Part shown: piece after piece, positions 2-29,648 of the stretch | Position numbering within the stretch: position 1 is the stretch's first letter | Layout of the letters: each line of letters opens with the position of its first letter | Made by a program: the position numbers and the translations under genes | Notes under the pieces: model-generated | Told to the model about the DNA's origin: nothing | Database searches by the model: none | The model's input: the letters and a program-made list of their open reading frames with translations, nothing else | Assembly: GCA_044892505.1 (NCBI GenBank) | Contig: CM097882.1 | Location: forward strand, 13,888,001-13,952,000 | Direction of reading: 5' to 3' | Length of the DNA stretch: 64,000 bases | Source: Schmidtea nova | Taxonomy: Eukaryota

Positions 2-2665
2 AGAGAAGCAGATGAAATATTCCTCACAGAAGAGAACAGACAAAAAGAATTGATAGAGGAATTTAAAGAGGTATTGTATAAACAACCATTTGATGATAAC
101 GAAACACTGAGAATAATCAATAAAATAAAAGTTAATGGGATTGAATTAGACAAGCTTAGAAATTTGATACCAATGATGGTAAAGAGGCAAAATATAACAA
201 AAGTATTTGAATTGGAAATAGAAATAAAAGAGATGTTAAAATGTTATGGAGAATATATAAGAAAAAACGAAAGATTGCACGAAACACTAAATGTAACGAT
301 CGAGTCAAACGATAACTACTTTTTCAGTAACAAACAACGGGTACATCCCTGCACTAAAGTGAGCAAATTAAAACGAATGGTAAGAGCCAAATGGCCAGGA
401 ACCATAGGAGAGAAAGATGTAATAAAATTATATTTTAACAGAATAGAATTATTAAGTGACGAGTACTTAATCGATTATGGGATAAACCCAATAAGTGATA
501 ATATTGTGGTAGCCACAGTAGAAAAACGAATGATCGATGAAATAGTGACGCCAGTACCGTCGGTTGAGCTGAGTATAAATGAAGAAAACGATTTTGATAG
601 ATTATTTAGGCTATGGGATAAATCACCTAGCGAAACAAAGAAATCAGTAATGGATGAAGAAATTATATTTAAACCTATAGATGAAAAGTATAGTAACTTA
701 CAAGAAACAATAGAAAGAATAGCTGAGGAAGCAAAAACAAAAGATGCAGAAACATCAAAACGAGGTAGAGGAAGACCTCGAAAATCAGAAATAATAGATA
801 AATCGGAGAATAGAAAGACAGCAGAACGATTAAGAGAGATTACAAATCAACATAAACATGAACAACCAGAGTATCAAGACGATAATAATGACGTAAACAA
901 AATAAAAGAAGTAATAAAAGCAATGAATATTAAGCTATTTCCAGAAACAAAGCCAACAGTACTAATTGAAAATATAACTGAAAGGATGATGTTAATTAAA
1001 AAGGATACTAAAGAACTAGCTACAGAGGAAGCAAATGAAAAAACAGTGTTAAAAATCCTGTTTAATACAGGGATAGATAAAGATAAAATAATAACGGCCA
1101 TGGCATACTTGGCCGCAAGATATAAAAAGCTCATAAAGGAAAATCCAAAAGAGCAATTAGAAAAAGTAGCAACAATGATGTTTAAAAGATTGAAAGTAGA
1201 GGCAATACCATGGATAAAAAAGAAAGGAGGATGGAAAGTATTATATGATAAAGATACGACGAATAAAGAGAGTGATACAGATGATGTAATAAAACAATTA
1301 ATAAAGAAAGCAACAGTAAAACCAAAGACAGAGAGTAAATCGATAACCTCCATAGTAATAGTCATAATCACTTTGTTATTAGATTTAATCAAGGGGGGCA
1401 ATGCAATGGTAGCATATGATTGTCAAAATCCAAAGTGGGGACAAAAATACTCACTGTTAGATGTTGAAAATTGCCCTGAAGCAAATCCAACTAAATTAAT
1501 CATGTCAGAGCCTCAAATATTCCATGTTTATCAAGAATCAGACTTTATTCATACAGAGGCTAAAGAGTGCATAGTAAAGTATCAGGAGGAAGCATATATA
1601 TGTCATGTTGGGGCAAGAACAGTGTTAAAACCTACGTGGACACCCGAAGCAGTAATATTGTCGCCAATAGAGTGTGAAGATGCATTTAAAACAAAGAAAG
1701 TAAAATATAGCGGTCATAAAGGAATAGAACTAGAAGCAAGGATAGGGGCAAAAATGAGACAAGATGTAAATGTTGTGGGATGGACATCAAAAGGAGGATA
1801 TTGTGAAGGAGGAGAATATACAATATGGGGCGAAAAACTGAGTAATGTTGTAGTAAGGAGACACTACATGGTAGAACTGAGAAAGTTCAAAGCATCATTC
1901 GACAGCAGCTCAAAGAAAATGATGATATACAAATTTTGTAGATTAGAAGAATCTTATTGCGATACAGGAGAATCAATGCTAATATACAAAATAGATAAAT
2001 ACGATTGTCAGTTAACAAAATTAAAATCATTAAAATTTAGGGAAATCAAAGGAAAACAGTTCACAGAAGTAGACTCAAAAAGGGTGAGAGATCAAAAAAG
2101 GAAAACAACAATTGTACAAGAAAAAGATACACCAACAATATATATGTCAGAATCTGAAAACGAAGCAATGAGGTTCGTTAGTAAAAGGAAAAGTGTAAAA
2201 TGTGGTAAGGAAATAATACAAACTAATTATGAAGGGATATACATAAGCAAAGAAGAAGTCAAAGATGCAAAACAAAAAGTAAATAAATTCGACGTCAAAC
2301 TTGCATCATACTTCAACAATAAAATCGATTTTTTCTATCATAACCAACTAGTACAATTAGATAAAGTATATCAATCAACAATTATGAGCGATTGCAAACT
2401 CAACAGAGAAATATTAAGGACAAAAATGGCAGTGGCGGTAACAAACCCAGATTTAATGGCACCAATAATCTTCTCAGAAGAAGGAACATTTGCAAGGATA
2501 GTAGGAGAAGTGATACAGACATTTCAATGTAAACCTGTTAGTGTATCGTTAGCAACAAATAATCAGTGCACTAATGAATTACCGGTAATATATAAAGGAG
2601 AAAGGGTATACCTTCAACCAATTACTAGAATATTAACAGAAAAAACATATATACCGAGAAAATAG
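2..2665 (+). pseudogene. Element A polyprotein N-terminal part: ubiquitin-like (~290-530), AT-hook (~760-785), Bcl-2-like (~890-1250), signal/anchor (~1345-1405), chuvirus-like glycoprotein ectodomain (from ~1406)
   Basis: Frame is open from position 2. Motifs: VHPCTKVSKLKRMV...KLYFNRIELLSDEYLIDYGI (Ubl); RGRGRPRK; LFNTGIDKDKIITAMAY and PWIKKKGGW (BH1/BH2); AYDC...SLLDVENC...ECIVK (Mono/Chu-type G). Ends in a one-base frameshift at ~2660. Confidence 0.8.
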
Positions 2666-3799
2666 AAAAATGCACTAACCTATTAGACCCATTATACAAA
2701 ATAAATGACGAAATGTGGATATCTATGTCAGATAGAAAGGAGGCAATGAAACCACTCAAATTAGAACTCATAGAGCTAGAAAAAAGATTAGAGTTTAAAG
2801 AAATCAACGATATGGACAGCAAGGGTATATATACGAGAGAAGCTATAGAAAGTGCAAGAAAACACATGTTATTTCCAAACGAAAAAGAAAGAGTACTTTC
2901 AATAATGGTTAACAGAGTTATCGAAGGAAGTTACGGAGGAAATTACAACTTTGATGTGTTATTATCAAAAGAATACTTTAAAAAAGTAGCATATAAAGTA
3001 CTATATAGCATATGGGGATACTTTGCAGTCCTTGGAAACATGTTTTCTACAATCTTAGGTATATATTATACGGTTGCATTACTAAAAATGATATGTTCTT
3101 CTCTAGTATCACTGAGACAGCTAAAACAAGTATTTGGAAATTCATATAAATTATTAGCATGTTTGTGCCCATTTATAGCTAAATATCTTATTACGGCGAA
3201 ACACGACAAGGAAATACGTTTAATAAAAGTCCAAAGGAATGAAGAAAGGCAATTATTGGTAGATGATGAAAACGATGAGGAAATAATTAAAGCGCATATA
3301 TCACATGAAGGAAATGTACCACAACAAGGACTATATGAAAACCAAAGAGAACAACTAAAAGAGCTACAAGAAAATATAGAAATCAAAATTCCTAGAGAAA
3401 ACAAGAATTGTCACTGTGAACCTAAAAAGATATATGGTTGTTATAGCTTAGAAGTCGAAACAATGGAACGATTAGATGCAGCAAACGAAGCAAGACCAAG
3501 ACTTAAAATAATTATAAACAATATAATCATAAATGCATTAGTAGATACAGGAGCAGCAACATCCTTAATTAGAGAAGATCAACTGACAGATGATCAGAAA
3601 AGAAATATTATGAGCACAACGGATAAAGTAGTATCGTTATCAGCACATTGTATTCCACTAAAGGGAGACATAGAACTAATAGTCGAAACACCAGAACAGG
3701 TAATAAACCACATATTTAAAGTGGTGCAAGAATGTAATAGCATATGTATATTGGGAATCGATATACTCAACAAGTTAGAAAATTGCATTATAGATTTAA
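2641..3799 (+). pseudogene. Element A polyprotein continuation: glycoprotein C-terminus with TM segments, then retropepsin protease (first copy, cut by the insertion)
   Basis: The shifted frame reads IEKCTNLLDPLYKINDEMW...; hydrophobic YSIWGYFAVLGNMFSTILGIYYTVALL; ALVDTGAATSLI. Confidence 0.85.
2848..3799 (+). repeat. 952-bp direct repeat, left copy (partner 11871-12822)
   Basis: Both copies run from GAAAGTGCAAG to ATAGATTTAA and their translations are identical. Confidence 0.95.
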
Positions 3800-4472
3800 T
3801 AATTAATAAAATTTTATTTCAATAAAATATGATAATTTTCCAATGGGACATAGCTCAACATGGAGCATCCCATACTGACAATATTCTAGGGCAGAAGAGT
3901 CTGAAATATCTGGATCAATTGGATGATATTCAGGGTTTTCTCGACTCGATTGTCACTCGAATTTGCCTGTATTGTCCCTGGCAGTGAATGTGATCTTCAT
4001 CGGATTTGGATTCCGGCATTGCAATATTGGATAAACTTCTCTTTGATTTCGAACAATCGGAATCATTGAGGTGTTCTATTGTCACTTGAAATTGTTTGTA
4101 TTGTCGTCAGTGGTAAAGGTATTCTTCTTTAGATTTAAATTCCGGATTTTCAGTTCTTAGTAAGTTTCTCCAGATTTTGTCAAGTATTCGAAAATGTACA
4201 ATAATTATCTTTAGGTTTTCTTTAAAGATTAAAATTTCCTTTTGATTAAGCTAAAGGAAAAATAATAATTAGCTAGACGCTGTTCCTGGACGAGGAAACA
4301 GTGTTTATTCACCGGAGCAAAACGTCAAGAAAAAGAGGGTAAGATGTTTTCAGGTCAAAGATAGAAATTTATAAACAAAATGAAGTAGTAAATAAGAAAT
4401 AATTAAGAAAGGAAAGAAAAAAGGGTAAATAAAATTGAATCAAGAAAAGAAAAAACCCCTCCAAAACTAACA

Positions 4473-4566
4473 AGCTCATCCACACGAGAGGAGAGAACAC
4501 ATTGTTCATCTCCAAATTTATATTCACCATTAGGCATTTGAGTTTCAGTTGGAATCATTTTTGAAA
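4473..4566 (-). repeat. 94-bp exact repeat of 11781-11874 (encodes the first 29 codons of ORF1)
   Basis: Identical AGCTCATCCACACGAG...ATCATTTTTGAAA. Confidence 0.95.
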
Positions 4567-4732
4567 AGAGAAGAATTAAAAGAGATTATTTAAACAATGC
4601 TATGATATTTCAAACTTTTAATTTAAATTAAAAAAAAAATTAAATAAATATCTAACAAAGTTAAGTAATTGTTATCAAAAATAAAAAAGGAAAAGGAAAT
4701 AAATTTAAAAAAAAAAAAAAAGAAGTTTGAAA

Positions 4733-4852
4733 AGTTTCACAGCACCTCGTATTCCCAGGCGGTCACCCATCCAAGTACTAACGAGGCCTTAACCTGCTTA
4801 ACTTCCGAGATCGAACGACATCGGTTGAATTCAGACTCGTTTAGTTGTTGTT
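4733..4852 (-). rRNA. 5S rRNA: 5S rRNA gene; nt ~19-120 well conserved, 5' ~18 nt replaced or overlapped by the retroelement ORF end
   Basis: Minus strand reads CTGAATTCAACCGATGTCGTTCGATCTCGGAAGTTAAGCAGGTTAAGGCCTCGTTAGTACTTGGATGGGTGACCGCCTGGGAATACGAGGTGCTGTGAAAC, followed by Pol III terminator T-runs. A and C boxes are recognisable. Confidence 0.92.
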
Positions 4853-6241
4853 AATTCGAATGAATTGCTCCTCGTTTTCGAAAATGGGTAGTGTACCATT
4901 CTTGTGGAAGTACCATCGTTTTGCCGAGTGTGCAATATTACTAATTGCACACTTTTTTAATAACCCAGCCACCTGGCCTTTATTTATGCCAATTTTCTGA
5001 AGGATCTGAGGAGTTTCTACAGGAAAAGAGCCAAGAGCGCCTATAATGCAAGTATCGAGTTCAACTTTAAAGTCTGGCTTGACAGTTTGAATATCGATTT
5101 TCAGAGAGTTGTAATTTTCCAAATTCAATAAATTTACACGCTCAAAGTTACATAAAGAATCACTCGGACATTTAAGGTCAACAAGGAAGATTCTTTTTCT
5201 AAGAACATCAGTTATCAGCAAATCCACCCGCTCTTTAGAACTCGGAACAAGTGAACAGGCATGGTTGACAACAACAATTAGGTTTTTATTAAGTTGGAGA
5301 TGATTAGAAATGAGTTTAAGGCAAGCATCGTGTCGTTCAGAGCCCAAAGTCATATGAACTTTGCACGATTGAAGTACATGTGATGAGGTTTCATCCTCAT
5401 CATGACATCGACGACAGAGTCTTTTCTCTCCACTATTATAAGGCTTTGCAAGGGTGGAAAGAGTGTTGGTGCGTGCTCTATGGACAAAGTTCCAAGCAAA
5501 CTCGGATAAATCACTGCGATAGATAGCTTTGTTTACTGTCGGTGAAAGCTTTACAGATGAAGCGATAATGTTTGAGACACAGCTTTTTTCCCATTTAACC
5601 AAGTATGAATCATTGAGCGCTAAGTGCAACACTTTTGCCGTGGTCTCACGTTCGTCCGGAGTTACAATACATGTACCACGTGCGTTCGTATTAATATAGA
5701 GACATAGTACATTATTGGTGATAGTAAAAGTGATGTTGATGTCGTGCGTCTTCTCAAAAAAAGCAATCGCAATCCTGGCTCTTTGAAATCGAGTTTTCTT
5801 TCCAGAATGGGGAGAAAGAGACTCTTTTCCATTGAGCCATTCAAGACTTTCCTGAAGAGTTGGATTTTTTATCCCAAGACGTGGACTGGTGATAAAAGCT
5901 AAAGAGTCAAGATTAATTTTCCTTGTAAAGTCACACTGTGACGTGATTAATCGAAAAAAGTGTGTGATAGTCTGTGTGTGATATTCGTCGAGGAGATCAA
6001 CACAGTTTGCTCCCCCATTTTCAGTTGAATTGTAGAAATAACTCACTTCCGAGTGATTAGGCAAAAGCAGCATTTTTCTTAAGGTTTTCCTTAACTGGCT
6101 AGTGATGTTAACTGAAAGATTTTTATTATCATAAGATTTTGAAAGTGCACTAGTTTTAATTTCACGGGTTCTAAAAGGGAAGATCAAGCGAGAATGGATA
6201 AATACTTTGTAAGCTTTAAGTTTTTGCCACCCAAGCAAATC
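4841..6241 (-). pseudogene. NeSL-like ORF2 C-terminal part: RT thumb, CCHC knuckle, RLE endonuclease
   Basis: GGANCVDL, CRRCHDEDETSSHVLQSC, RHDACL, ERVDLLI, LVDLKCP. Confidence 0.9.
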
Positions 6242-9200
6242 CTAATCAGCAAGTTTTTTGGTGTCTTTGAGTGCCTCCAGTAGAATGTCGTAAGGACTTT
6301 GGTCAGTTCCTTCGCCAACTGGCACACCTAGGTATTGATAAAATTCATTAGACAGTAGTTTTTTTATTTTAACTCCATTGATTGAAATTTCACTGTCAAT
6401 GTGAATTCTAGGAAGTTGCAGATAAGCACATTTCTCTGGCCGATATTCAAAGCCTATATTGGTTGCAGTTGTGACAGCAGTGTTAATGAGTTTTTGCAGG
6501 TCATTAGGAGATTTAGCGAAAATTGCGATGTCATCTGCATACGCGAGAATTTTGACAGATGATTCTCCAATAGCAAAAGCATCACAGACTGTTCTGGAAA
6601 CAGCTTCCAACACAGGATTAATCGCCAAAGCAAACAAAATCATGGAGATGGGACATCCTTGCTTGACACCCTTTTTAATTGGGATCTTTGGTGTCAGAAT
6701 AGGACCACAACTATAGAAGGAGCTTGTGTCAGAATATAAAAGTTCTAAGATGGAGGTAAAGTCTTCACTTACCCCAGTGTATCGGAGTAAGGACCACATG
6801 TAATCATGTGGGACACTACCAAAAGCATCTTTTATGTCGAGCCAAGCAATGGAAAGAGGACAGTTTTTACTATATTTGGAATGTTCCAGAGCAGCAGACA
6901 GAATCGAGTTGTGTTCAACGCAACCTTCATGTTGGGAGCCACCTTTTTGTCCAACATGTAATAGTTTATTAGAGTTTATCCAGCGTGCAAGACGAGAGGC
7001 TAGACAGGACGCAAAAACTTTGTAGATGACGGATAGCAAGGCAATCGGGCGCCAGGATGATATATCTGAATATTTATCATTTTTATTAGGTTTCGGGATT
7101 AGAGTGGTTTTGTAGACCTTCCAACTGTCCGGTATGGACTTCTCTGTAATGATCTTGTTGAACAAGAAAGTAAGTATATGACCATCAGGATCTAGACGCA
7201 ACAAGTCACGATATTGTAATCCATCAATACCAGGACTAGTGTTGTCAGCCCTCCTAAGTTCATACATCACTTCCCTATTCGAGAAGCATTTCAGAGGAAG
7301 TACATTTTGAGAGTGTTTACAAAAGTCAAATAGTTTCTCCCAATGCCCACGTGCAGGTGTTTCATGAGAAAAGTTTTTAACTATGTTCTGAAAAGTTGGT
7401 CGAGCCGGTACATCGAAATTGTTGATGACCTTATTGACAGCTGACTTCATATCTTTCATGAATAAATCGATCAATTTATTTTTGCTAATTTTAGAAGTTT
7501 TAATTTTGGTTCCCAAGTATGGTTTTTTAGCTGGTTTCACTTTTTCAGGGAATTGCTCCATAATCGCGTGAATAATTTCATTTGTGCTATAATTTGCCCA
7601 TTTAATTAAAAATAGTTCAGCATTAGTTCTCTTTTGTTTTATCGGAACTCTCAATATAGCTTTATGAATAATTTTAGTGTTACTTGGGTTTTCTATATTA
7701 TCGTGCTGCCTGACAAAGATAAGCAAAGAGCCAACCACGTCTCCAATCTCGCGCAAGTTTAAATTTACAAGGGGCAAATTTTTCGAGAAATTATTAATAA
7801 ACGCACACAAGAGAATTTTACTAACAAGACCTGAGCTGCGGATGTCATGGGGACATTCAGAAAGATTCAAAACGCGGCCAGGTGTATCTTTTATGTCATT
7901 TATTTTATTTCTCAGAATTCTGCAAGTAGACAGATAATTGTCATTCACAGTTAAAGATGTTGGGTTTACAAGATAAAAGGTGTCAACACTATAATCGAGA
8001 ATGAGCAAAATTTCACGATGTTTAGGGGGAGCAACAATCGCAAAGATGATTTGTGATTTGCATATATTTTCAAAATTCAGAAAATCATTTATGTGTTGAG
8101 TACAATCGTCAAGAATAGCCGTGCACATGGTCACACTCAGTAAAAAAAAAGTCTTGGGTAAATTTAAATTATCAAAAAACATTGAAATTATTTTATCCGA
8201 AATTTTAGAATTAAGTAAGTTTAGATTCTGAGAGATTTCATTTGTTTCCCTTAATTTTATTGAGTTTAATGATTTGTGTATATTTAAAAAATGAATAACT
8301 TTATTAAACAAAAGTTTCTCAAGAAGCTCAATAAAAACCGACGCAAAGAGAATTGTATCATCAGAGATGTTGGGCACCAGTTCCAAGCCGTGGTTAGGTT
8401 TAAAAGAAATGTTTGTTGATAGAAAGAACTTATTCAAGTAGTCAGTAATATTTTCGCCGATGCCAAGTAAACGGTCAGAAATAGGTTTTTCTTGATTGTT
8501 AAAAACGTAACTTGCACCATGTGTAATAGAAAAAAGATATAAACACCAGTAATTATCATTCGGGATAACACTGATGACATGGTTAATCCCTAGAAAATTT
8601 TTTAACGTGACATTTTCTCTAATAAATGAGTTATTTCTAGAGATTATATTTAGTGTAAGTTCTTGGGACAGGACCAAGATGTCTTTATGGTCTTTAAACC
8701 ATTCGGTAATCAAAGACGAGATGCAGGCATTACGTTTCATAAGGAAGATGTGGTCGTGTTTATTAGAAATATTTAGAGTTGTGTCTTTTTTCACTCTCTT
8801 AGGGTTAGTGAGTTTAGATTCACCACCTCCAGATGATTTTGGGACCATGTTATTTAAAGTAAGTTTAAATTGGTAGACATCTTTTCTGATATTTTCTATA
8901 AAATCATCAGGAAATTTTTGCCATGTACCACTTATCATCATAGCATAAGCACAGATGTAAGGCCCACAGTCATAGTTATTATTTTGGTAGACAAAGTTTT
9001 TATGTGGGTGGAAAAATAGTGCAGCTTTAAGGTTAAAAAGACGATTCAAAGCGATTGTAGTTTGAAGAGCGTCGGCTCTATTGGTCAACGAATGGCGGTT
9101 GTTGAAAAGAGGATCTACAAAGTATGAAGTTAAAGAAGTTTTACAATACACAAAAATAATCCAATGAGTTTTATTAATATTTATTGGACATAGTAGAGTT

Positions 9201-9466
9201 TGCGCAGATATTACTCTGTCTGGCATTCGAAAAATGGTTTCGCAAAGATTTGCCCGTAAGATTTCTATTTGAAAGCATTTTATTGGAGCAAATTTAGGGT
9301 CATTGATATGACATTCAAGATAGTTATCAATGTCATCATCAGTAAACCATATTTTAGGGTCACGCAATATATTTGTGATTTTAGATGGTTTAAATTTTTT
9401 GGGAAATGTGCTGTCTGCATCAGTCTCTGTTGAGATTGGGGCAGATATTGAGACTGGTGCAGGCAC
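6242..9466 (-). pseudogene. NeSL-like ORF2: Ulp1/C48 protease domain(s) + reverse transcriptase, cut by in-frame TAG
   Basis: RT motifs as above. TAG at 6244-6242 is followed in frame by DLLGWQKLKAY. Confidence 0.92.
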
Positions 9467-9472
9467 ACAACT

Positions 9473-11866
9473 TCATTTGTTTTTGATAGCCGTACGTTTG
9501 GGTTTTTTAATAGGCTTTTTCGAAGAGTCTTGAGACTCACTATCAATTAATTCAGTGTTTGATGTCAAATTTTCATCAATATCGACAGGAAGTTTATTTG
9601 TAGGGTTTTCTACCAAATTGTAATTTATTTCGGCTTCATCGCATTCAGGAATAGAAAAAAGAGGCTCGTTTACAAGCTTTTCAGTATTCTCATTGTTCCC
9701 CATCACAGGCTTATCAACCTTTTCTATAGCAGGTTTTTCATTGACAGTTAGCTTAATAGAGCATAAGATTCTAGATATACCTTCGCTCATTTCTGGAGTA
9801 CAAATCTTTCTACAGTACTTGGGAACGCGGAAAGTAAATTTATTTTTTAAAAGAAAAGTTTTTTTATCTCTAATAAGAAAGAATAAGAGTCTTTTCGCTT
9901 TCAAGGTGTTTGAGTTATCCAAATCGTCTTGGAATTCGTTAATTCCACGTCCTATATTTTCAAGTGCCGTTAGTTGTTGTGCTTTATTTGGCAAAAGATT
10001 TTCGATAGAATCAAAGAAGTTGTTAATATCCAAAATAGTTTTTGGAGAGATGATGTTGTTTATTTTATCGATCTCTTGAAGTATAAAAGTTTGTTTGAGT
10101 TTTAGGAAGCGCTCTTGGCAGCTTTTGTTATAATAGGAGTTGGTAGGTAGTTTTTTAATTAGTTCCATAGCCCAGGATTCAATATTATCGCAGCATAAGG
10201 AGTCTACACTCTCAAGCTTCACAATCGAGTGCATTAGGAAGCAGTTACGAATGTAATTATAAACATATATATTAAATGATAAATTTATTTTGCATTTTAA
10301 AGATCCCTGTAAGTTTAGGTAATTTAAGTAAAATATTATATTTATTAATTTCTCAGGTGACTGAGGCTGTTTTAATAATTTATTGAACTCAATGTCCACA
10401 TTTGACATTTCTACAAAGTCTAATAAGCCAAGATTAAACATTATGTCAGACGCACCATTATCGTGCAGTCCAACAGAGTTTTGAAAAATTTTATTTTTAA
10501 CAAATTTACCCCCAACAAATGAAATCTCATTAGGAAAATGTTTTATAGTTTTTAATTCTTTAATTAAATTAATTAATAAATCAGGATACCTGTTCACGTT
10601 TTCCATAAAGTAGAGCTTTGGAATTTCAGGAAAGGATCTTGTTAATTCTTCCAATTCAGAGCGAGAAAGATCGATTGGGTTTAGATCAGTGCTGTCGCCA
10701 ACTAATTCATCGGAATTAATAAGGTCTAACAGAAGAAACTCTCCATTTGAATACTTTAACTGAGAATTGATTAAGAAATTCGGAATCTCTCCACTTTGTT
10801 TTAGTTCGTCTAAAATTTTATTAATTCGGATCTCCCGATCCTTAACATTTTTTATCGTAATAGTTCCTGAAAATCTTTTTGTGAGGGCATAAAGAAACTT
10901 CTTTATGCAAAGAGAGGCAGGAATAAACTTATTACGGTTACTCAAGGGTTCAATAACTTTGGAGCCTATTAGGTAAGTTTTATTTTTAGATTTTTTACCA
11001 TCAAGAGCGTTTGGTTTGTAATCAGTGGGCCCAAACTCAATTAGGACACAAATATATCTATTTCTATAAAAGAGCTTACTAAATCCAGCGATACCCAGCA
11101 AGTTGTCCGTTCTCGGAATTTTACTTAGTAAATTATTTATTTTAGAAAATTTCTGTGCTGAATCTCTTAATTTAATCAATTGGGAAAGTTGTGGGAATGA
11201 TTCAAAAAGTTTTTGTCTTTCTCTTTTATAAAGGTGACGTGGGAAACTCGTTAAGAAACGTTCAACCTTTGAAAAATGTTTTACATGACTTATATCAGGA
11301 TTTTCCCCATCAAACTTAATCTTAACTATGGAATTTGACTTCTCAGGTTCAGCAGACTTCTTTTCTACTTCCACTCCCACAAAAAAACTTTCATTTGATT
11401 TTCCATTGATCGAATTGTCCAGTTTAAGCTCTGGAAAATCAACTTTTTCTGAATATGCTGAAATCAACTGAGATTTATTTTTATTATCATTTTTAAATAA
11501 ACTAATTTTTATCTGGGACGGCTCAATTTTATCCCCTTTCAAGTCCCCGACCAGAGAAATCCTCCTATTATCTCCAAAAGTAAATCCATCAACATTTGGG
11601 TGCTGATCCACAGATCGAACACTATCAGCATTTCCAATCTCATACAATCGTTGCGATTTCGCAAGATTGTCAAAAAAAGAAACATTATTTTTATCAAAAA
11701 ATTGTGTTTCATTGTTATTTAAATTTAAAAAATTAACAATCAAATCAAGCTTACTAAGGATTTTCTTGAAAGAAGCATCCAGCTCATCCACACGAGAGGA
11801 GAGAACACATTGTTCATCTCCAAATTTATATTCACCATTAGGCATTTGAGTTTCAGTTGGAATCAT
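9473..11866 (-). CDS. NeSL-like element ORF1 / N-terminal region (~800 aa, no recognised domain)
   Basis: Long ORF, same frame as ORF2, separated from it by a single TGA. Confidence 0.7.
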   Translation of the reverse strand: MIPTETQMPNGEYKFGDEQCVLSSRVDELDASFKKILSKLDLIVNFLNLNNNETQFFDKNNVSFFDNLAKSQRLYEIGNADSVRSVDQHPNVDGFTFGDNRRISLVGDLKGDKIEPSQIKISLFKNDNKNKSQLISAYSEKVDFPELKLDNSINGKSNESFFVGVEVEKKSAEPEKSNSIVKIKFDGENPDISHVKHFSKVERFLTSFPRHLYKRERQKLFESFPQLSQLIKLRDSAQKFSKINNLLSKIPRTDNLLGIAGFSKLFYRNRYICVLIEFGPTDYKPNALDGKKSKNKTYLIGSKVIEPLSNRNKFIPASLCIKKFLYALTKRFSGTITIKNVKDREIRINKILDELKQSGEIPNFLINSQLKYSNGEFLLLDLINSDELVGDSTDLNPIDLSRSELEELTRSFPEIPKLYFMENVNRYPDLLINLIKELKTIKHFPNEISFVGGKFVKNKIFQNSVGLHDNGASDIMFNLGLLDFVEMSNVDIEFNKLLKQPQSPEKLINIIFYLNYLNLQGSLKCKINLSFNIYVYNYIRNCFLMHSIVKLESVDSLCCDNIESWAMELIKKLPTNSYYNKSCQERFLKLKQTFILQEIDKINNIISPKTILDINNFFDSIENLLPNKAQQLTALENIGRGINEFQDDLDNSNTLKAKRLLFFLIRDKKTFLLKNKFTFRVPKYCRKICTPEMSEGISRILCSIKLTVNEKPAIEKVDKPVMGNNENTEKLVNEPLFSIPECDEAEINYNLVENPTNKLPVDIDENLTSNTELIDSESQDSSKKPIKKPKRTAIKNK

Positions 11867-11870
11867 TTTT

Positions 11871-12822
11871 GAAAGTGCAAGAAAACACATGTTATTTCCA
11901 AACGAAAAAGAAAGAGTACTTTCAATAATGGTTAACAGAGTTATCGAAGGAAGTTACGGAGGAAATTACAACTTTGATGTGTTATTATCAAAAGAATACT
12001 TTAAAAAAGTAGCATATAAAGTACTATATAGCATATGGGGATACTTTGCAGTCCTTGGAAACATGTTTTCTACAATCTTAGGTATATATTATACGGTTGC
12101 ATTACTAAAAATGATATGTTCTTCTCTAGTATCACTGAGACAGCTAAAACAAGTATTTGGAAATTCATATAAATTATTAGCATGTTTGTGCCCATTTATA
12201 GCTAAATATCTTATTACGGCGAAACACGACAAGGAAATACGTTTAATAAAAGTCCAAAGGAATGAAGAAAGGCAATTATTGGTAGATGATGAAAACGATG
12301 AGGAAATAATTAAAGCGCATATATCACATGAAGGAAATGTACCACAACAAGGACTATATGAAAACCAAAGAGAACAACTAAAAGAGCTACAAGAAAATAT
12401 AGAAATCAAAATTCCTAGAGAAAACAAGAATTGTCACTGTGAACCTAAAAAGATATATGGTTGTTATAGCTTAGAAGTCGAAACAATGGAACGATTAGAT
12501 GCAGCAAACGAAGCAAGACCAAGACTTAAAATAATTATAAACAATATAATCATAAATGCATTAGTAGATACAGGAGCAGCAACATCCTTAATTAGAGAAG
12601 ATCAACTGACAGATGATCAGAAAAGAAATATTATGAGCACAACGGATAAAGTAGTATCGTTATCAGCACATTGTATTCCACTAAAGGGAGACATAGAACT
12701 AATAGTCGAAACACCAGAACAGGTAATAAACCACATATTTAAAGTGGTGCAAGAATGTAATAGCATATGTATATTGGGAATCGATATACTCAACAAGTTA
12801 GAAAATTGCATTATAGATTTAA
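11871..12822 (+). repeat. 952-bp direct repeat, right copy
   Basis: Matches 2848-3799. Shares 4 bp (GAAA) of microhomology with the end of the insert. Confidence 0.95.
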
Positions 12823-13388
12823 CAGATAATACGATAAAGAGAAAAGCAATTAAACATAAATCCAAGTTCACAGAAGTTGTTGCATTAGAAGCATTTGAAT
12901 TGGAATATGAATGCGATCATATTATTCCCTTAAAAGTTAACATCAAAAGTGAGGACACTTTTATTTTTGAGCCAGAAACGGCAATTATACAAAATCAGAA
13001 TATAATGCTAACCAATGAATGCGTAATTCCGAGAAAGGGAATAATACCATTGAGAATAGCAAATTATGAAAAAAGTAATGTTAAAATACACAAAGGTACG
13101 AAATTGGGAAAATTATTCAAAGGTGAATTAGAAAAAACGTACGAAGTTAGTGAGATAAGTGTGATGAATGATAACGGCAAGAAAGTAGTCGAACCTAGTA
13201 AGATAAATAATATAAAATCATATGACAAAGTAAAAATTAATAATGAATACTTAACAATAACACAACAAGCACAACTACAAACATTGATAGATAAATATAG
13301 TGATGTTTTTGCAAAACACGAATTTGATCTAGGAGATACCGATATAATCAAACATGTAATAGATACAGGTAATGCGAGACCAATATAA
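11889..13388 (+). pseudogene. Element A: duplicated glycoprotein tail + retropepsin protease + post-protease linker
   Basis: DTGA. Ends at an in-frame TAA that is followed by QRPYSVPY...WASPIVPVKKKDG. Confidence 0.9.
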
Positions 13389-16300
13389 CAAAGACCATAC
13401 AGCGTACCATACAAGTTAAGAGAGGAAATAAAACGACAAATCAAAGACCTAAACGATGCAGGTGTAATAAAACAGAGTTTTTCACAGTGGGCATCACCCA
13501 TTGTACCCGTTAAAAAGAAAGACGGAGAAATAAGAATGTGCATTGACTATCGTAAATTAAATGATGTAACAGTAAAAGATTCATACCCATTCCCAAAAGC
13601 ACAAGAGCAATACGATAAACTTAGGGATGCTAAGTATTTTTCAGTTATTGACGCAAATAAGGGATATATGCAAATTCAAATGGAGGAAGGGGATGCGGAA
13701 AAAACAGCATTTGTTATCGAGGATGGTTTATATGAGTACACACGATTACCTTTCGGGTTAACTAACGCACCAGCTACATTTCAGCGACTAATGAACACAA
13801 TATTAGTAAATGTACAACATTGCGCAGTTTATATGGATGATATACTAATATCATCAAAAACATTTGAGGAACACTTAAAAGATATAACAAATGTACTCGA
13901 GAGACTAAGAAAAGCAAAAATTAAAATTAAACCAACTAAGTGTAAATGGGCAGAACCTTCGGCGTTATTTCTAGGGCATATAGTTACAGTAGAAGGGATA
14001 AAACCAAATCCAGAAAAAATAGAAGTTGTAAAGAAATTCCCAATACCAAAAACAGTACAACAAGTACAAGGGTTTTTAGGTCTAACAGGGTACTATCGTA
14101 AATTCATACAAGATTATGCAAAGATAGCATCACCGATAATAGAACTAACAAAGGGAATTAGAACAAAAGGAGAATGCAAAGATGTGTTAATAGTACAAGA
14201 AATTAACAACAAAGTTAACAAGATACAAAAGAAGTGGACAAAGGAACACCAAGAAGCATTCAATAAACTAAAAGAAAGATTGATAACAGCACCAGTGTTA
14301 AGATACCCAGATTTCGAAAAACAGTTTATAGTAATGACGGATGCCAGCGGGAAAGCCGTAGGAGCAGTCTTGGGCCAAGAAGAAGAGAAAGGGAAAGATT
14401 ACGTAATAGCATATGCCAGTAAAACATTAAAAGGAGCACAGCTGAGGTATTCAACAATAGAAAAAGAATGTTACGTAATAGTATTCGCCCTAAAACAATT
14501 CAAACCATACATATATGGGACTGAAGTGATAATAAGAACTGACCATAAACCATTAGAAGGTTTATGGAAACATAAAGATACATCAAGTAGATTACTTAAA
14601 TGGGCAATGAAAATACAAGACATGCACCTAAAGATTATATATAAACCAGGTAGAATAAATAAAAACGCAGATGCACTATCAAGAATACCAGAATTAGGAG
14701 CACTTGAAATATTTGCACTGGTAGCAGAAAAGCCAATCGATATATATGAGGAACAGATGAAAGACCCAGAGAACAGTAAAATAAGGAATGAAATCAGAAA
14801 AGAAAACAATTCAAAGTATAAAATATCAAAGAAATTAGTAGTAATAGAAGATTTCAATGGTAAGCAACTAATAGTAGTACCTCAGAAATTAAGACAAATA
14901 CTCCTACTACAATATCACGATGGAGCATTAGGAGGTCACTTATCATCTAGAAAGACAGCAAGTAATTTATTACAAAAATATTACTGGGAAGAATTAAAGA
15001 AAGATGTTAAGAGATGGTGTAACGCGTGTACAATATGTGCAACAAGAAAAAATACAGGTACAAAAACAAAAGCACCATTACATCCCATTCCAGCAACGAC
15101 ATCACCAATGGAACTATGTGCAATGGATTTTCTATGTAAATTACCTACTACAATTAATGGGAATAAACTAGTATATAGTAATTATTTTACTAAATGGGCA
15201 GAAGCATTTCCAACAAAAGACGAAACAGCAGAAACAGTTGCTAAATTGCTTATAGAAAAAATTATTTTCAAGATAGGCACACCCAAAAGATTATTAACAG
15301 ATAAAGGAACAAATTTTACTAGCGAATTAATAAAAAGAGTAGCTAATATTTTTAATATGCAAAAGATTAACACAACAGCGTATCACCCTCAAACTGATGG
15401 ACTAGTAAAAAGGTTTAATGGTACATTACTAAGCGGACTAGCTGTTTTTGTAGGAAAACATCAAAATGATTGGGACGAATACATAAGTCAATGCACATAC
15501 ATTCATAATATCACTCCAAACGAAACAACAGGGTATTCACCGTATTATTTAATGTTTTTAAGAGAACCAGCAACACCAATAGATACAATATTTGAACCTC
15601 GAGTATCACAATATTTAGATGCACCAGATTATGTCACACTAATGCAGGAAAAACTGCAAGAAGTGTATAAAGTAGCCAATCTAAAAGTCAAATATAGACA
15701 AGAACAGTACAAAGCCGACTACGACAAAAATAGTAAACCACACAACTTTAAAGTAGGTTATAAGGTTAGACTTATGTCACCACAAGTAGGAAAGGGAAAG
15801 ACAACAAAACTAGCAAGACCATATAAAGGTCCATATGAGGTAGTAAAAGTAATAAATGAGAATTTACACTTACAAAAACATAAAAACGAGGATCCAATAG
15901 TAGTACATGTCAACAGATGCAAGTTGGCGGAAGCCGAGGTCACGATAGATAAACCTCACAAGTATAATCTAAGATCTCATAACAAACTAATAATATCAGC
16001 TATCTTCTTAACAATCATAACATTCGTTGGCTCAACCAAAACAATAGAATTTGACAAAATATTAATAAAAATAGCAACAAACGAAGTTAGAGTATTTATC
16101 ATAAATAGAGGAGTAATTGATATATACATGCAAACAACGAATGGGAAAAATCCAAAGATGATAAAAGGAAAAGACGACAGAACAACCAACGAAATCGAAA
16201 GAGGAAGCTATATTAATTTCACAAAACTAACACCTAATACAATATACAGAATCTGCATACAGAGAAACACAGATACAACAACATGGAGATGCAAAAAAAT

Positions 16301-16769
16301 AAAAACAGAACAATTACCCAAGAATATAACAAAAAATCATAACATAACAAAAACACTCGATAGAATAAAAAGCACAACAACGACATCAGATAATATACTA
16401 AATACCACACCACATACAAACGAAATACCAACAAGCACTGAAATAGCCAAATTCCAAAAACAATACAATGCCAAAAAACAAAAACAAGAACCTATCAAAA
16501 TAAGGCAAGGAAGACCAATAGTGATACATAACTTAGAGGAACTACAAGCATTTCGTAAAGAGGATAAAAAGCCACATTGGCCTTATTATATCATCACAAC
16601 ATCAATAATAGCATTAACAATTTTAGCTTTAATAACTAGCGTACAAATTTATAAAAAGTACAAATGGAAAAGGCAGCGGTATCGGAGCCGACAGGTCAGA
16701 AATGTACCAGGGCATTTCCATTTGGGCAAATATATACCAGGTGAATATACAAAATCCACATTGGTGTAA
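13389..16769 (+). pseudogene. Element A: RT-RNase H-integrase fused to signal + FN3-like + Thr-rich stalk + TM; third integrase catalytic residue is K
   Basis: CIDYRKLN, LPFGL, YMDD, TDASG, H..ALGGH..C..C, TDKGTNF, GLVKRFN (E>K at 15408), GPY; then LIISAIFLTIITFVGS, LTPNTIYRICI, TM YYIITTSIIALTILALITSV. Confidence 0.92.
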
Positions 16770-16928
16770 TACGTTTTGGTCAATAATAATAATTAAAATC
16801 ATATATATTCGTATTTATATAGCGTATAAGGTTAAACCGACAATACGCCTTAAACAAAAAACTTTATCCTTTATTTTTAGAAAAGAATACACGAGCAAAA
16901 CAAAGCAAGTTCCAACAAACTCCGAAAA

Positions 16929-17186
16929 CCCAATCAATCTCGTGAATTCTACACACCAATCAAATCATTGCGACAACCATTCAAAAATCTCAATAAATAC
17001 AATCATCTCTTTTTTAAACTGTCACAACAAACAATCAAAAAACCCTACTAATTATCTCTATACAAAATACCCAATCAATCTCGTCGATTCTATAAACCAA
17101 TCGAATCGTTACGACAATTACCCATATATCTCAATATATTCAACTATATCTCTGTTAAACTGTCAAAACCCTATTAATCATCTCTC
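16929..17186 (+). repeat. ~141-bp diverged tandem duplication in the 3' region of element A
   Basis: CCCAATCAATCTCGT at 16929 and 17070, with similar following sequence. Confidence 0.75.
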
Positions 17187-17308
17187 AAATCAATATATCA
17201 AGAAATCAATTCGATACCAATCAAAAACAAAGATGAATCAAAATCAACCTCATTTCAATCAATCAAGAACCTACCAGAAATACACTTGTTTTATGAAACA
17301 AACTCAAC

Positions 17309-19297
17309 ATGAGTTTTTATAAAAATCTACTGAACAATATATGTACTGATGGAACCCCAATTACAATTCGCAGTTTCCCAAATCAAATATGTATCCCAAA
17401 CGACATGAAAGTCGAAATAGAAGAACGGGAAATGCATCTGATAAAATTCAATGAGGCCCGAAGAGTGAAACTCAAAGAGCTTATTGGAACCTTCGACAAA
17501 TACCAAAACGTCGACAAAGAAGTTGCCGAAAACAAAAGAATCCCTCACAGATTAATATTCCACATGACAAAAACAGAAGTTGCAATATGTCAAAATAAAA
17601 TCCCGTTAATTGTCACAAGCAACTGTTCAGCAGTTATCAAGTTAATAAGAAAAGACAGAAGCATGTCAAACGATCTCAATGAGCTGACAGTGCAGATGAA
17701 TAACCTACCATGTGTGATAGCAATCGAAGTGCTATATATCCCGACAATCCAAAATCCGTTCATAAAATTAAACCCAATACATTCAATCCTACAAATAAAT
17801 GAAGATATGATCAACCAGAAGATATCATTCACGAATCAAGAATTAACGACTGAAGAAAGGCATTCATTAACTGTAATTGTGGATATAAAAGTAGTTTAAG
17901 ATATAAACAAAAATCTCAGACCAGTGGAAATTTGTATCAGAAGCAAAAAAGGAGCAATTCTGTATAACAAGTTCATCACCCCAAGAACGAAAGTTGAAAA
18001 ATTCTACACGGAAAAAACTAAAGCTACAAAAGAAAACATAATTGGAAATGAAGACGAATATAAAGCCTTAAATGAAATTCGAAACATTCTCTATGGAAAG
18101 ATCATAGTTGGATTCAACATCATAGATAAGTTAAAACTATTGACAATAGATCTGGACAACATTATGGGCATAAGAGAAATGGCACAGGATCGATTCATGT
18201 GTTCTTTTGTAAAAAACGTGGCACCACCAAAAATAAAAATATCAAATTTGGCTTACCAGGTAATCAATTACCATAAAAGTTGGCATAAAGATAAAAAGTT
18301 AAATGATATATTGAGACAACCAGAACCATTCTCAACAAAGATCACCACAATGCTATTAAAAGTTATCTACGATATCACAGAAAATAAATGGGAAGAAGTT
18401 GTCAAATGGGATTCCGCAACACTTCTTAAAAGGAAACAAGCAAATGGAGAAGAACAACTAGAAACAATATTCGAAAACGAAACAGAGAGCGAAGCAGAAA
18501 GTGAGATAGAAAGTGAATATGAAGATGGAGAAGGCATGGAGCCGTCCCTTGGGGAATCAATAAAAACCAATCATAATAAACCAAAAAAGTCATTCATGGA
18601 AGAGCTCATGGACAGTGACGACGATGAACTCATGATCATAAAAGAAGAAATACCACTTATCGCTCCAACTAGAGGAATCAAAGCAGAACCCAAAATTCAA
18701 AATATTCTATATGAAAGAATGGACGAATGTGATATAGATGATGAATATTTCTCAGCAGATGAGAACATAGAAGAACCTTCAACCAGCAGTAACGACATCA
18801 AAATGGAAGAAGATAATGAAGAACCATCAACAAGTAATAAATACAACATAATGGAAGAGGATATCGGACAAGAACCAAACGTTGAAATGTTAGCCGACTG
18901 GACAGAACCAGAAGAATCAGATTTCATAATAGACAAAGACAAGAAATACGTCTCAGAAAAAGATCTCTGCACTCATTTTGGAAGACAAATTGAGCACGAG
19001 GAGACAATAAACCTTGCGATAAAAAATAGATTTCGAAAAACAACAATTCAAATAAAAGAGAAAAGAATTGATTTAATATTGTGTGACAAGGGTAATGAGG
19101 ACATTACTTTGACGGCCCGGGGAGGAATGTTGGATGATGAAGGTAAGCCCATCAATACATTCCTCTTATCCGAAAACTATAGTGTGGGAGGCGGCAGGTA
19201 CAGAATAAATATTTATGCAGAGCCCGTTCAAGAAGAAGCAAATATCAATCAATCTCAATACGGTAGATCAAGACAACAATATCCATTGGGCATTTAA
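17309..19297 (+). pseudogene. Accessory ORF of element A with a degenerate REXO4/ISG20-like DEDDh exonuclease domain and an acidic region; one in-frame stop at 17897
   Basis: The two ORFs share a frame. VIVDIKVV*...ILYNKFITP...ILYGKIIVGFNI..KL..L...IRE follows the ISG20/REXO4 pattern with acidic catalytic residues altered. Confidence 0.65.
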
Positions 19298-21284
19298 TTC
19301 TTGACATTATCATCTTTGGTGAATATTGATTAACAATCTATGACTTTTCAACTGATTCAACACCAGTCAGAACCCCACAAAGATCAATGACACAATAATA
19401 CAGTTCCCATCCTCAAACATCTCAAAGATCAATCAAATCAATGTGATTTTAACAAACTGTGAGCCTATCTTATTTGTGATCATAACAATCAAAGACAACG
19501 AATCCCCAAACAACTATATATATGAAATTACAAATTTATGATTTGATTCACTATATATTTATTGTTTTATCCACTGTATTTTTACCTTGCTATTATTTTA
19601 TTCTGTATATTATTATTTTATTTTTAATTTTACATATTGGTTTGTATAAATATGGCAATATGGAAAGAATTTATATTATTATTTTATTTTTAAATTTTGT
19701 ATGACAATATGGAAAATATTAAAGGGCAAATTAGGACATTTCAAATAGGGAAATATTATTCATTCACATTTCAAATGTAATTATCATCGGAAATTTAAAA
19801 GATAAAAATGATATTTAAATATAATTATTTACAATTAGAGTAGAAAATTTTAGTATATAAACTGATGTAGATATCAGTACAATGCCCACAATTTTTTGAA
19901 ATTCAATTTCAATCAAAATTTTGCGACATAAACTTTCTCAAAGGGTAATCCTGCGAGAACTCAAAATTCACGGACAGCACAAAAACGTCCAACACGAAAT
20001 TTTTATAACTAAAATAAACATAATACATTCACGTAAATAACAAGCACACAGTAGGACACGCAAAAAATATCTTTTAAATAAACTTTGTAAAACAGTTGTA
20101 CAGATTTGAAAGTGTGATTTATAACTTTTGATTTTTGATTTCGGTAAATTTTGTTATTGAATAAATTTTTCAAAAAACTTGATCTTATTTTTATATACTA
20201 TAGTCTACACCAGTGCACGTTGAGATCTAAAAATCTTGGACCTCAACATTATAATATTTTGAGTAGTGCTTTGATTTAACGTTTATCATTGAAGTGTTTC
20301 AAAAATTATAATAAAAATTATACTAAAAAAAGTAAATTAATAATATTTAAAAAAAATAAATAACTAATTAAAAAAATAATTAATTAATAAATAAAAATAA
20401 AATAAATAAATAAAAATTTAATTATTTAATAAATAAATAAAAAAATTCCAAACATTTAAACAAAACACACTTTAAAAATGGCGCCAAAAAACGCGCGATA
20501 ACTCATACGGATCCAGATAGCTCATGTCCTTCTACTAATAACAAAAAACAAATGGGAACATCACATGGGGATTTAAACTAAAAATCAAAATAATGTCAAC
20601 ACCCAAATTATCATAATCGATAAAAAAATAATTCCGATCAAGTACACTACACAGAGCTTCACGGGAACCGTTGATGACATAGCTACTGTTCCATAATCCT
20701 AAACGAAATTATCGGGATGGAGACATTAAAATAACAAAATAAATTTATTTTACTGCTGAACTTGATACCACTGAGTTTTACAGAATAAATACTACATATG
20801 TCATAGATGATTTCAGATGGAAAAATGACGCTGATAAAAAGATTATTTTTAAATTCGTGCAGCTGATGACAATGATTTATTTTATGAAAATTGCAGCTCA
20901 TTATATAGTTGCTGCTGCTTCAGATTAACCAATTAGGTTTGAGTCACACACGAATATGTAAGTGTATTTTATTTTATATAACCAGTAATTATTTGATTTT
21001 AACTGATAGGGTTTTTCTCTTTTAACCAAAAATTTTATTAAATCTTTTAAAATTTATGATTTATTTTTATTTTAATCAATATTTTCCATATAATTGGACT
21101 AAAAGGGGTTTTCTAATTATTTGTCTTCATTTTCGTTAAAATTCCTTATTTTTAATTTCTGTTTCGCTAGTTTATTACTATTTTTGTCTTTATTTTATTT
21201 TATTAATTCGTTTTCTTTTATTATTTTATTCTGATTCCCCCCTTTTTTATATTTTACTTCTTTTGCTCGGATGTAGTGCCTCGG

Positions 21285-25250: not shown

Positions 25251-25485
25251 TCAAGTGACTTATCTTGTCAATTACCCGATTTTCAGGTTGTTTGTTTACG
25301 TGTGTTCATTTTATCTTTGATTATTCTGTTAAATAACAGATTTATTCGTTCCATCTAATTCGATTCATTTGTTATATAGGCGCTTTGTGGTGGTCCGGAT
25401 GATGTGTTCTCATTTTGGCTGTTTATTTGTAAGCCTTTTTATCTTTGTTAATTCCTAATAGTAGTAGGAAGTGAGCCCGCCAGAT

Positions 25486-26430
25486 ATAGGTCAAGACCCC
25501 CCCATAGAAAAAAAATTTTTTTATGTAGGTCAAATTTTTCGCTTAAGGACACTTTAAGGTCAAATTTTTCGCTTAAGGTCACTTTGAGGACACTTTAAGG
25601 TCAAAAAAGTAGGTCAAAGTCGTTTTAAGGACACTTTAAGGTGAGTTTAAGGTCAAATTTATGGTTCAAGGACACTTTAAGGACAAAAAAGTAGGTTAAG
25701 GTTGTTTTAAGGACACTATAAGGTCAAAAAGAATGCCAATTTAAGGTCACGATAAGGACAAATAAAGTAGGTCAAATATTTTTAAGGTGAATTTAAGGTT
25801 AAAATAAGTAGGTCAAATATTTTTAAGTTGCTATGACAACGAATAAGTAGGTCAACTTAATTTTTTCAAAATTTGATAGTTGCTATGACAACGAATTAAG
25901 TAGGTCAATAATAATTTTAAAAATTTTTCTATGTCAGAATTAAGTAGGTCAAATATAAAAAACTTGAAAATTTTTCTATGTCAGAAATAAGTAGGTCACG
26001 AAAAATTTTCTATTTCAGAAAAAAGTGGGTCAACTTTATTTTTCTCAAAAATATTTCTATGTCAGAAATAAGTAGGTCAACTTTATTTTTATAAAAATTT
26101 TCCTATGTCAGAATTAAATAGGTCAAATATAAAATTATTCAAAGTTATAATATATTTAAAATATTTTCTATGTCGGAATTAAGTAGGTCAATTTAAGGTC
26201 AATGTGAGGACGAATTAAGTAGGTCAATTTAAGGTCAATGTGAGGACAAATTAAGTAGGTCAATAATAATAATAATTTCTAAAATTTTTTCTATGTAAAA
26301 ATTAAGTAGATTAATAATAAATTTCGAAACTTTTCAAAGTCAGAATTAAGGGTACATTCAGGGTACTATAAGGTCAACAAAGTAGGTCAAATAGATAATT
26401 TTCTATGTCACAATTATGTAGGTCAAATAT
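25486..26430 (+). repeat. Subterminal array of AAGTAGGTCA/AAGGTCA motifs (mirrored at ~33625-34530)
   Basis: About 15 or more GTAGGTCA copies in degenerate 30-45-bp units. Confidence 0.85.
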
Positions 26431-27811: not shown

Positions 27812-28240
27812 TTTAAATATCCAACTCTCCCCTTCTTAAGACCTTTTCCACTTCAGCCACTCGATTCTTCTTCCTTTCATACCTTCTTGCGAGTGTTTTA
27901 CTCGTTATTTGAGTCTGAAATCAAATGGTCACATGTCATTGTGGCGTTCATGTATATAAAACAGATAATGGATAATTCGGGTTCAAATTATGAAAATTAT
28001 TTTCAATGGTCAGTACAGGTATATTATTTTTATTTAATTATATTATTAATATTATTTTAGATTATCGAAAGTGAAATATGTCCCTGGGTTCAAGAAAATG
28101 GACAATGGCAAAAACTACTAGAATTGGCCGAAAATAGTAGAACTATTAGGAAAACCAAAGAAAGATTGAAAAATCTGTTGAAAATAACAATTGGACTCTG
28201 TAGTATTTATGCTATTGTAAATTTAATTCATCGAAAATAA
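27812..28240 (+). CDS. Bcl-2-like gene (BH1-like, BH2, C-terminal TM) with 42-nt intron 28019-28060; 5' end uncertain
   Basis: LFESEIKWSHVIVAFMY...WSVQ|IIESEICPWVQENGQWQKLL...ITIGLCSIYAIVNLIHRK*. The phase-0 GT-AG intron joins in frame. Confidence 0.75.
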
Positions 28241-29282: not shown

Positions 29283-29648
29283 TCAAATAACAACAACATT
29301 TTGGGCTCTATGCCATCTCTCCAACTGGTATAGGAGCTCCTCTTTGTCTTTCATGAGCCTCCAATTTGGGCAACATTTGCAATGTGTGCAACAAATTGGC
29401 TCCAACTTTATTGGAGGCTCTGCCATGTTCCTTTTGTGTTCTGCGATCACCTCTTTTAGGTTCACGCCGCAGAACAACCATATCTTCAGATTTATGTGTT
29501 CAGGAGCCCAGAACATCATATCTTTCATCTCCTGGGGATAGAGCCTTCCCATCATATCCAGAGCGATTTGCAACAATGTTTCTAAATAATTAAAATTAAT
29601 TAAATTATATTAAAAACATTTAGGCTTACCGTCTAGAGAGCTTGACAT
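29283..29648 (-). CDS. Mirror copy of the two-exon Cys-rich gene (3 aa differences in exon 2)
   Basis: Reverse complement of 30513-30879 with T/M, P/L and Y/H changes. Confidence 0.7.

Follow-up and report, generated by a model that had tools for sequence, protein, structure and literature searches.

The locus analyzed here raises the question of whether one retroelement protein can join, in a single reading frame, a ubiquitin-like (Ubl) domain, an AT-hook, a Bcl-2-like domain, a viral-type fusion glycoprotein (env), the retroelement enzymes and a further membrane protein, and how such a protein would work. It lies at the left end of a 64,000-nucleotide stretch of Schmidtea nova DNA (assembly GCA_044892505.1, contig CM097882.1, positions 13,888,001 to 13,952,000 of the forward strand), referred to here as the window; positions are those of the window, and all parts of the element given below lie on its plus strand. 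An earlier note, made from the sequence alone, had proposed a single frame of about 2,580 codons once a nested insert was removed and one frameshift and one stop were repaired. The window holds most of a damaged ~14-kb Ty3/Gypsy long terminal repeat (LTR) element (measured LTR to LTR, minus the nested insert and one duplication arm), with Gag and the 5′ LTR just left of the window; Gag, both LTRs and a second open reading frame (ORF2) were missing from the earlier note. In our assessment, this is probably a damaged copy of a recently expanded flatworm GAG-ENV-POL family, whose polyprotein of ~3,040 residues is predicted to pass the membrane four times and likely serves enveloped particles.

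In the window copy, the open frames span 2-2665, 2629-3825, 11850-13388, and 13389-16769. The order of Pfam matches along them is Bcl-2-like, Monjiviricetes_fusion (in two pieces), RVP (twice), RVT_1, RNase H, and integrase, the protease being found twice because of a duplication. Three breaks interrupt the coding sequence, i.e. a frame change between 2629 and 2665, a nested insert of ~8 kb, and an in-frame stop at 13386-13388; ORF2 is likewise fragmented. The frame had been described as still open at the left edge. Indeed, the first polyprotein piece (2-2665) continues without a stop across the window edge into a Gag region of 489 codons, located at 8532-10000 of the locus to the left (L013). 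We assigned this region to Gag because of its position, its single CCHC knuckle, and its 37% identity to a sister family whose equivalent region matches Retrotrans_gag (E 7e-8).

Whether the repaired frame is real was answered by other copies in the genome. A DNA query with env gave 524 candidates, of which 40 were scored, yielding at least 40 matches at 99-100%; from the 39 other env matches, 20 sister copies were fetched, plus-strand only. Five of these 20 carry an uninterrupted frame of 3,058-3,073 codons; in the remaining 15 it is interrupted at various positions. With a query from the polyprotein tail, 28 of 150 scored matches (350 candidates) sit in frames of 3,054-3,082 codons, a count that omits one further match with an internal stop. 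The intact frame (~3,060 codons, ~3,040 residues) runs Gag, Ubl, AT-hook, Bcl-2, fusion glycoprotein, protease, reverse transcriptase (RT), RNase H, integrase, and membrane tail. An open frame crosses the site of the first break in 19/20 sister copies and the site of the stop in all 16 that match there (the remaining four gave no match). A single polyprotein frame exists in natural copies, and the part of it that falls within the window (3,073 − 490) comes to the ~2,580 codons originally proposed. Frames of 3,393 and 3,401 codons occur in two other families of the same genome, each represented by one copy; these share the env family and the domain order, at ~39% env and ~52% RT identity.

The nested element and the long duplication in the window copy could also suggest that separate insertions came together by chance, or that the structure is an assembly artefact. 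The sister copies, however, are collinear without the insert (span of 1,175-1,178 bases in 16 of the 17 measured), the element as a whole ends on both sides in matching LTRs with a 4-bp target duplication, and the same order recurs in unrelated public proteins. We regard a chimera as vanishingly improbable. For the polyprotein as such it was ruled out by the unbroken sister frames (5/20 and 28/150) and the insert-free copies, and the segments proved to be neither separate ORFs nor chimeric insertions. No clean splice joint was seen within the frame in four sequence runs (contigs, kind unrecorded), a result that says nothing on expression.

Several features identify the element as Ty3/Gypsy (Metaviridae), as the earlier note had it. 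The 5′ LTR (L013:7178-8387) is followed by a primer binding site from L013:8390 that starts with TGG, and the 3′ LTR (19128-20248) is preceded by a purine tract; both LTRs start with TG and end with CA, and the 4-bp target-site duplication TTAT stands on both flanks. Among five loci, no tRNA gene was found and no priming tRNA was identified. The RT (YMDD at 13830), RNase H, and integrase (H2C2, core, and SH3-like end) occupy 13389-15980, in the order protease, RT, RNase H, integrase, and the best solved relatives of the RT are those of Ty3 (4ol8, E 3e-80; 7q5b, E 3e-79). Bel/Pao membership appears excluded by this best match among solved structures and by the env lineage, which is catalogued as Ty3/gypsy. 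Between protease and RT, a linker in dUTPase-like position (12832-13388) holds the in-frame stop; it matches Pfam DCD with an E-value of only 0.16 and is 32-35% identical to relatives. The two LTRs differ by 10 mismatches and a ~89-bp duplication in the 5′ LTR; being nearly alike, they indicate a young insertion, and the family is a young, multi-copy, recently expanded retrotransposon. Among copies with 99% identical env (L016-L055), the LTR varies: 9/20 gave no match to the window LTR, and most of the remaining copies match at ~80% over its last 430 bases only. ORF2 length also varies among such copies, from 739 to 898 codons. This variation of LTR and ORF2 end despite 99% env identity suggests exchange of LTR and ORF2 between sublineages.

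The env segment (1412-3100) includes a C-terminal anchor (~3034-3100). The two pieces of the window copy match Monjiviricetes_fusion with E 7.7e-50 and 7.8e-35, and env of an unbroken copy matches PF24664 with E 4.2e-88 over profile positions 5-638. Both its in-frame position upstream of the protease, seen again in the unbroken copies, and its likeness to a chuvirus/mononegavirus-type fusion protein were therefore borne out. Judged by sequence, env is a class III, HSV/gB-type glycoprotein homologous to the flatworm envs already catalogued. We found 1,120 relatives at E≤0.001, the closest being long polyproteins with env before the protease; many further relatives are stand-alone proteins of ~650 residues, and the three scanned were PF24664 glycoproteins. 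All nine env ectodomains compared have 14 cysteines. Against sequences of solved structures nothing significant was obtained, as expected of a distant class III fold. In six of the public relatives (P0001, P0002, P0004, P0005, P0008, and P0013), two to four consecutive protease-like domains follow env.

To describe selection, distinct substitutions were counted against one reference copy in 8-19 copies per segment and expressed as pN/pS, the copies having been picked by env similarity and the counts being small. Ratios were 0.08 for env (45 synonymous, 15 replacement), 0.04 for RT, 0.07 for integrase, and 0.11 for Gag; higher values were obtained for the Ubl (0.28), the fibronectin type III (FN3)-like domain of the tail (0.35), and the exonuclease-like domain of ORF2 (0.13). 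Purifying selection holds env as tightly as the enzymes.

A plain Kyte-Doolittle hydropathy scan called four hydrophobic segments, located before env (H1, 1331-1411, score 2.12), after env (H2, the env anchor), after integrase (H3, 15984-16031), and near the polyprotein end (H4, 16578-16769 including a basic C-terminal tail). All four recur in 4/4 unbroken copies examined, where H3 scores 1.8-1.9, and in 2/2 sister-family copies; of the public relatives, those that continue far beyond integrase (P0003, P0005, and P0015; 3/3) have one hydrophobic segment behind it and another further on. A bacterial label on P0003 most likely reflects metagenome-bin contamination. Flavivirus polyproteins pass the membrane multiple times, and the earlier note had drawn this comparison; the four segments fit an alternating topology, and the threading itself is a prediction. 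Both the four-pass topology and infectivity are inferences.

In the proposed scheme, insertion would be co-translational. H1 would serve as an internal signal sending env into the lumen of the endoplasmic reticulum, and a signal-peptidase cut at H1 would leave Gag-Ubl-AT-hook-Bcl-2 tail-anchored on the cytosolic face. H2 would stop transfer, leaving protease, RT, RNase H, and integrase in the cytosol, attached to the env tail. H3, as a predicted second internal signal, and H4 would repeat the pattern and release a small type I membrane protein with FN3 domain and stalk. The element's protease would then free capsid and enzymes at the membrane, on its cytosolic face. With one polyprotein and a protease cutting at the membrane, capsid, enzymes, and fusogen would arise in equal numbers and come together where budding takes place. 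Fusion of particles with neighbouring cells would be the task of env, the FN3 protein may be an attachment or host-modulating partner, and the Bcl-2-like domain might keep the producing cell alive.

A one-to-one ratio of Gag to Pol is unusual for LTR elements, which speaks for a different use of the same DNA: through splicing or ribosomal frameshifting, Gag, Gag-Env, Pol, and the tail could each be made on their own and at different levels, the four-pass form being minor. Five in-register slippery heptamers between Gag and the end of env would suit this, but such heptamers are common in AT-rich DNA and were counted without a control. Moreover, single Gag-Pol-Env frames are known in other elements, and H1 and H3 are exactly what in-frame expression requires. 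We consider separate products unlikely.

The tail after integrase had been described as an FN3/mucin membrane protein. Its beta-sandwich domain (16035-16313) was modelled with six strands (FN3 has seven) at pLDDT 61. The top Foldseek rows are almost all FN3, with a best E-value of 0.019 and none ≤0.001; in the VIA comparison, Z was 7.1 to fibronectin vs 7.7 to another Ig-like fold. ESM Atlas clusters of FN3 domains, from membrane proteins, were reached at 0.84-0.89, which makes them leads under 0.9, and no Pfam fn3 match was obtained in the polyprotein. An FN3 domain is likely, with moderate support from these comparisons. "Mucin" was overstated: the stalk and linker (16314-16577) are rich in serine and threonine for about 50 residues (28% S+T in the first 50), and the whole tail ectodomain has four N-glycosylation sequons. 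Between lineages, the ectodomains enclosed by H3 and H4 (181-317 residues) do not align, except that those of the two sister families align with each other and that P0003 and P0005 share a weak 32-residue match. As the hydrophobic pair is kept and the ectodomains are not alignable, the slot is conserved, and its content appears to differ or has diverged beyond recognition.

Several observations weigh against the four-pass, particle-forming polyprotein. The hydropathy scan made false calls in stretches that are not membrane segments (P0005, P0015, and one sister copy), and it did not pick up H1 in P0001, P0002, and P0004; P0005 scores low for the last hydrophobic segment (1.65), and in P0015 that segment is ambiguous. 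No significant E-value stands behind the FN3 call. Little constraint was seen on the Bcl-2-like domain (pN/pS 0.73) and on the stalk (0.83), and the env-based choice of copies and the small counts bear on all ratios. Finally, the family's env ectodomain has neither an N-glycosylation sequon (relatives have 1-3) nor an R-X-K/R-R furin site. These last two features would suit an element without free infectious particles, which transposes within the cell and whose env and FN3 protein either target the producing cell or bring about direct fusion of neighbouring cells; PMC13524379 also terms it unclear whether gB-type retroelement envs are infectious. Purifying selection on env as strong as that on integrase (0.08 vs 0.07) and the retention of all 14 cysteines across deep relatives argue otherwise, and we hold an element without free infectious particles to be quite unlikely.

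The domains upstream of env are supported to different degrees. The segment 284-526 is likely a Ubl, as first proposed, on profile evidence alone: a three-sequence profile built with the two sister families matches almost only ubiquitin and UBL chains (di-ubiquitin, E 4e-4; single domains, E 0.015-0.3), and Pfam ubiquitin matches a sister copy at E 0.029. The single-sequence search gave no match, and the single-sequence fold (pLDDT 55) had no meaningful Foldseek or VIA match. The AT-hook was recovered as one motif, RGRGRPRK, at 761-784 (Pfam E 0.31); the same motif lies upstream of env in public relatives P0001 and P0016 and is missing in both sister families. For the Bcl-2-like domain (899-1246), also among the original claims, PF00452 matched with E 8.6e-6, under the curated cut-off, and a three-sequence profile matched Bcl-xL/Bcl-2 at E 4e-5, ranked behind two designed proteins. 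This domain is found also in the sister families and in P0006. With 9 synonymous vs 27 replacement changes, it has far more replacements than its neighbours, pointing to relaxed or diversifying selection.

ORF2 lies in three pieces at 16636-19297, overlapping the polyprotein end and extending into the 3′ LTR. Around 17860-18300 it resembles an ISG20-like DEDDh exonuclease fold (1wlj, ISG20, E 8.6e-5). The first catalytic motif reads D-I-K or D-A-K in 17/17 matching copies (3/20 gave no match), and the second acidic site is K or M in 16/16 covered copies. An active DEDDh exonuclease was rejected, since D-x-E and further catalytic residues are lacking and the motifs are degenerate. The family's ORF2 may thus be a catalytically dead, RNA-binding protein. 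The sister families retain D-A-E, one of them aligning with ISG20L2 over 170 residues (E 1e-7), and ORF2 looks intact in a sister family. No ORF2 homolog was found among 5,395 candidates of similar length, and Pfam gave nothing useful.

A further-reaching reading of these parts is rather unlikely but deserves mention. It would see these flatworm elements as infectious retroviruses with two-protein entry, in which a conserved class III fusogen before pol acts with an exchangeable attachment protein after integrase that sets which cells are entered (stem cells or germ line). Both would be made from a flavivirus-like four-pass polyprotein, and the Bcl-2-like, Ubl, and dead ISG20-like domains would blunt host defence. 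If the tail is an attachment protein, a fixed post-integrase slot with changing ectodomains would be a second entry component undescribed for Ty3/Gypsy in the papers found.

How much of this anatomy is new? The earlier note implied novelty, which did not survive comparison with published elements. Arkhipova and Yushenova (2019; PMC6431247, section 7) describe ORF1 of Burro as encoding Ubi2/SUMO-like and BCL2 domains and an env with matches to mononegavirus fusion glycoproteins, followed by protease, and call Burro the first case of an env lying in frame between gag and pol. Chary and Hayashi (eLife 2026; PMC13524379) report GAG-ENV-POL gB-type Ty3/gypsy elements in flatworms, nematodes, and bryozoans, with chuvirus-like glycoprotein genes beside gypsy pol; their env ectodomains are "flanked by two transmembrane domains". 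The present element adds a family, not a concept, since an env inside the polyprotein that follows Ubl and Bcl-2 and precedes the protease has already been published.

Among the six such elements reported from Schmidtea mediterranea, Smed_errantivirus_3 shares the GAG-ENV-POL order, the gB-type env, and the occurrence of several near-identical copies (PMC13524379). In env domain I, 174/246 residues are identical (~71%, counted by eye), compared with the 31-38% that this source gives for Smed_3 against the five remaining Smed families; the two are related families, and their sequences are not the same. The words "Bcl", "fibronectin", and "polyprotein" are absent from the main text of PMC13524379, so that the cargo, the post-integrase cassette, and ORF2 are undescribed there; the figure supplements, outside the search, may show them. 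With Burro/GYPSM1, the element shares Ubl, Bcl-2, env, and protease in this order and in one frame after Gag. It differs in size (~14 kb vs >30 kb; ~3,040 residues, from frames of 3,054-3,082 codons, vs 4,873-5,140) and has one CCHC knuckle rather than two or three. MATH, BIR, and ankyrin domains, which are Burro cargo, gave no Pfam match (E≤1) when the polyprotein and three ORF2 copies were scanned, and a post-integrase membrane protein is not mentioned in the account of Burro in PMC6431247, section 7. Between protease and RT, where Burro has a dUTPase-like domain, the linker here matches DCD at only E 0.16. The element works like Burro, but membership in Burro, known here from its description, was rejected on size and cargo.

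More distant parallels exist. Anakin (Dezordi et al. 2020) has a chuvirus glycoprotein from the same fusion glycoprotein family (PMC12440569) but is a Bel/Pao element, whereas the present one has a Ty3-like RT and carries env before pol. In the hookworm element Atlas, Gag, Pol, and Env form one polyprotein, and its membrane glycoproteins follow pol in the same frame, similar to the H3-H4 slot; in contrast, it is a belpaovirus with class II, phlebovirus-like GN/GC and no env before pol (PMC9094657). The rotifer LTR elements Juno and Vesta have a separate 3′ ORF (ORF3) with a DnaQ-like exonuclease of the DEDDy type (PMC5408684), whereas ORF2 here is closest to DEDDh ISG20 and ISG20L2, with degenerate motifs. 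The post-integrase cassette and the ISG20-like ORF2 were not found in the literature searched; Repbase, Grohme et al. 2018, subscription papers, and the eLife figure images lay outside this search and may hold them. The anatomy makes two questions testable, namely the infectivity of gB-type retroelement envelopes and the way in which enzymes behind a membrane anchor enter a capsid. Being compact and rich in unbroken copies, the family lends itself to a search for expression and particles in the living animal.

The insert that splits the window copy is a non-LTR element on the minus strand (3800-11870) with ORF1, Ulp1 protease, RT, and zinc finger; it is foreign to the LTR element and carried by 0/20 sister copies. 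It is flanked by a direct duplication of env end and protease (~950-960 bp), whose arms at 2848-3808 and 11871-12831 (protease DTGA of the second arm at 12567) are 99.7% identical, with the sole three mismatches at 3800-3803. Such a duplication is very long for a target-site duplication and may be a real event or an assembly product. No contig of the four sequence runs spans the insert junction at 11870. The nested insertion and the duplication may be private to the carrier of this copy, or a product of assembly. At least 40 nearly identical copies of the Ulp1-RT element occur at dispersed sites, some of them in tandem at 7,305 or 7,140 bases. Its ORF ends inside a full-length Rfam 5S rRNA match (4852-4734); this 5S-like sequence travels with the element, because the match extends through the 5S region to ~3800 in 13/15 loci, including that of the window. 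The start of the ORF is repeated as a 94-base copy at 4473-4566.

The rest of the region contains further repeats. At 42287-64000, a second LTR element of ~21.7 kb has LTRs that are 99.1% alike, and its frames encode Ubl-like, protease, ankyrin, TRAF (RING, zinc finger, and MATH), and BIR-RING domains, the cargo listed for Burro. No RT match was found among its ten frames scanned, and it is probably a non-autonomous derivative. The genome contains very large numbers of BIR frames of ~399 codons; a search of it with the BIR family located no Burro-size frame. A large inverted repeat with short internal tandem repeats occupies 25460-34554, its arms at 26561-29276 and 30885-33600 being 100% complementary; related pieces lie upstream (L013-L015). 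Just upstream of the LTR element, a fragment of a protein-primed-type DNA polymerase B (L013:5555-6388; PF03175, E 4e-17) is perhaps a Polinton-like remnant.

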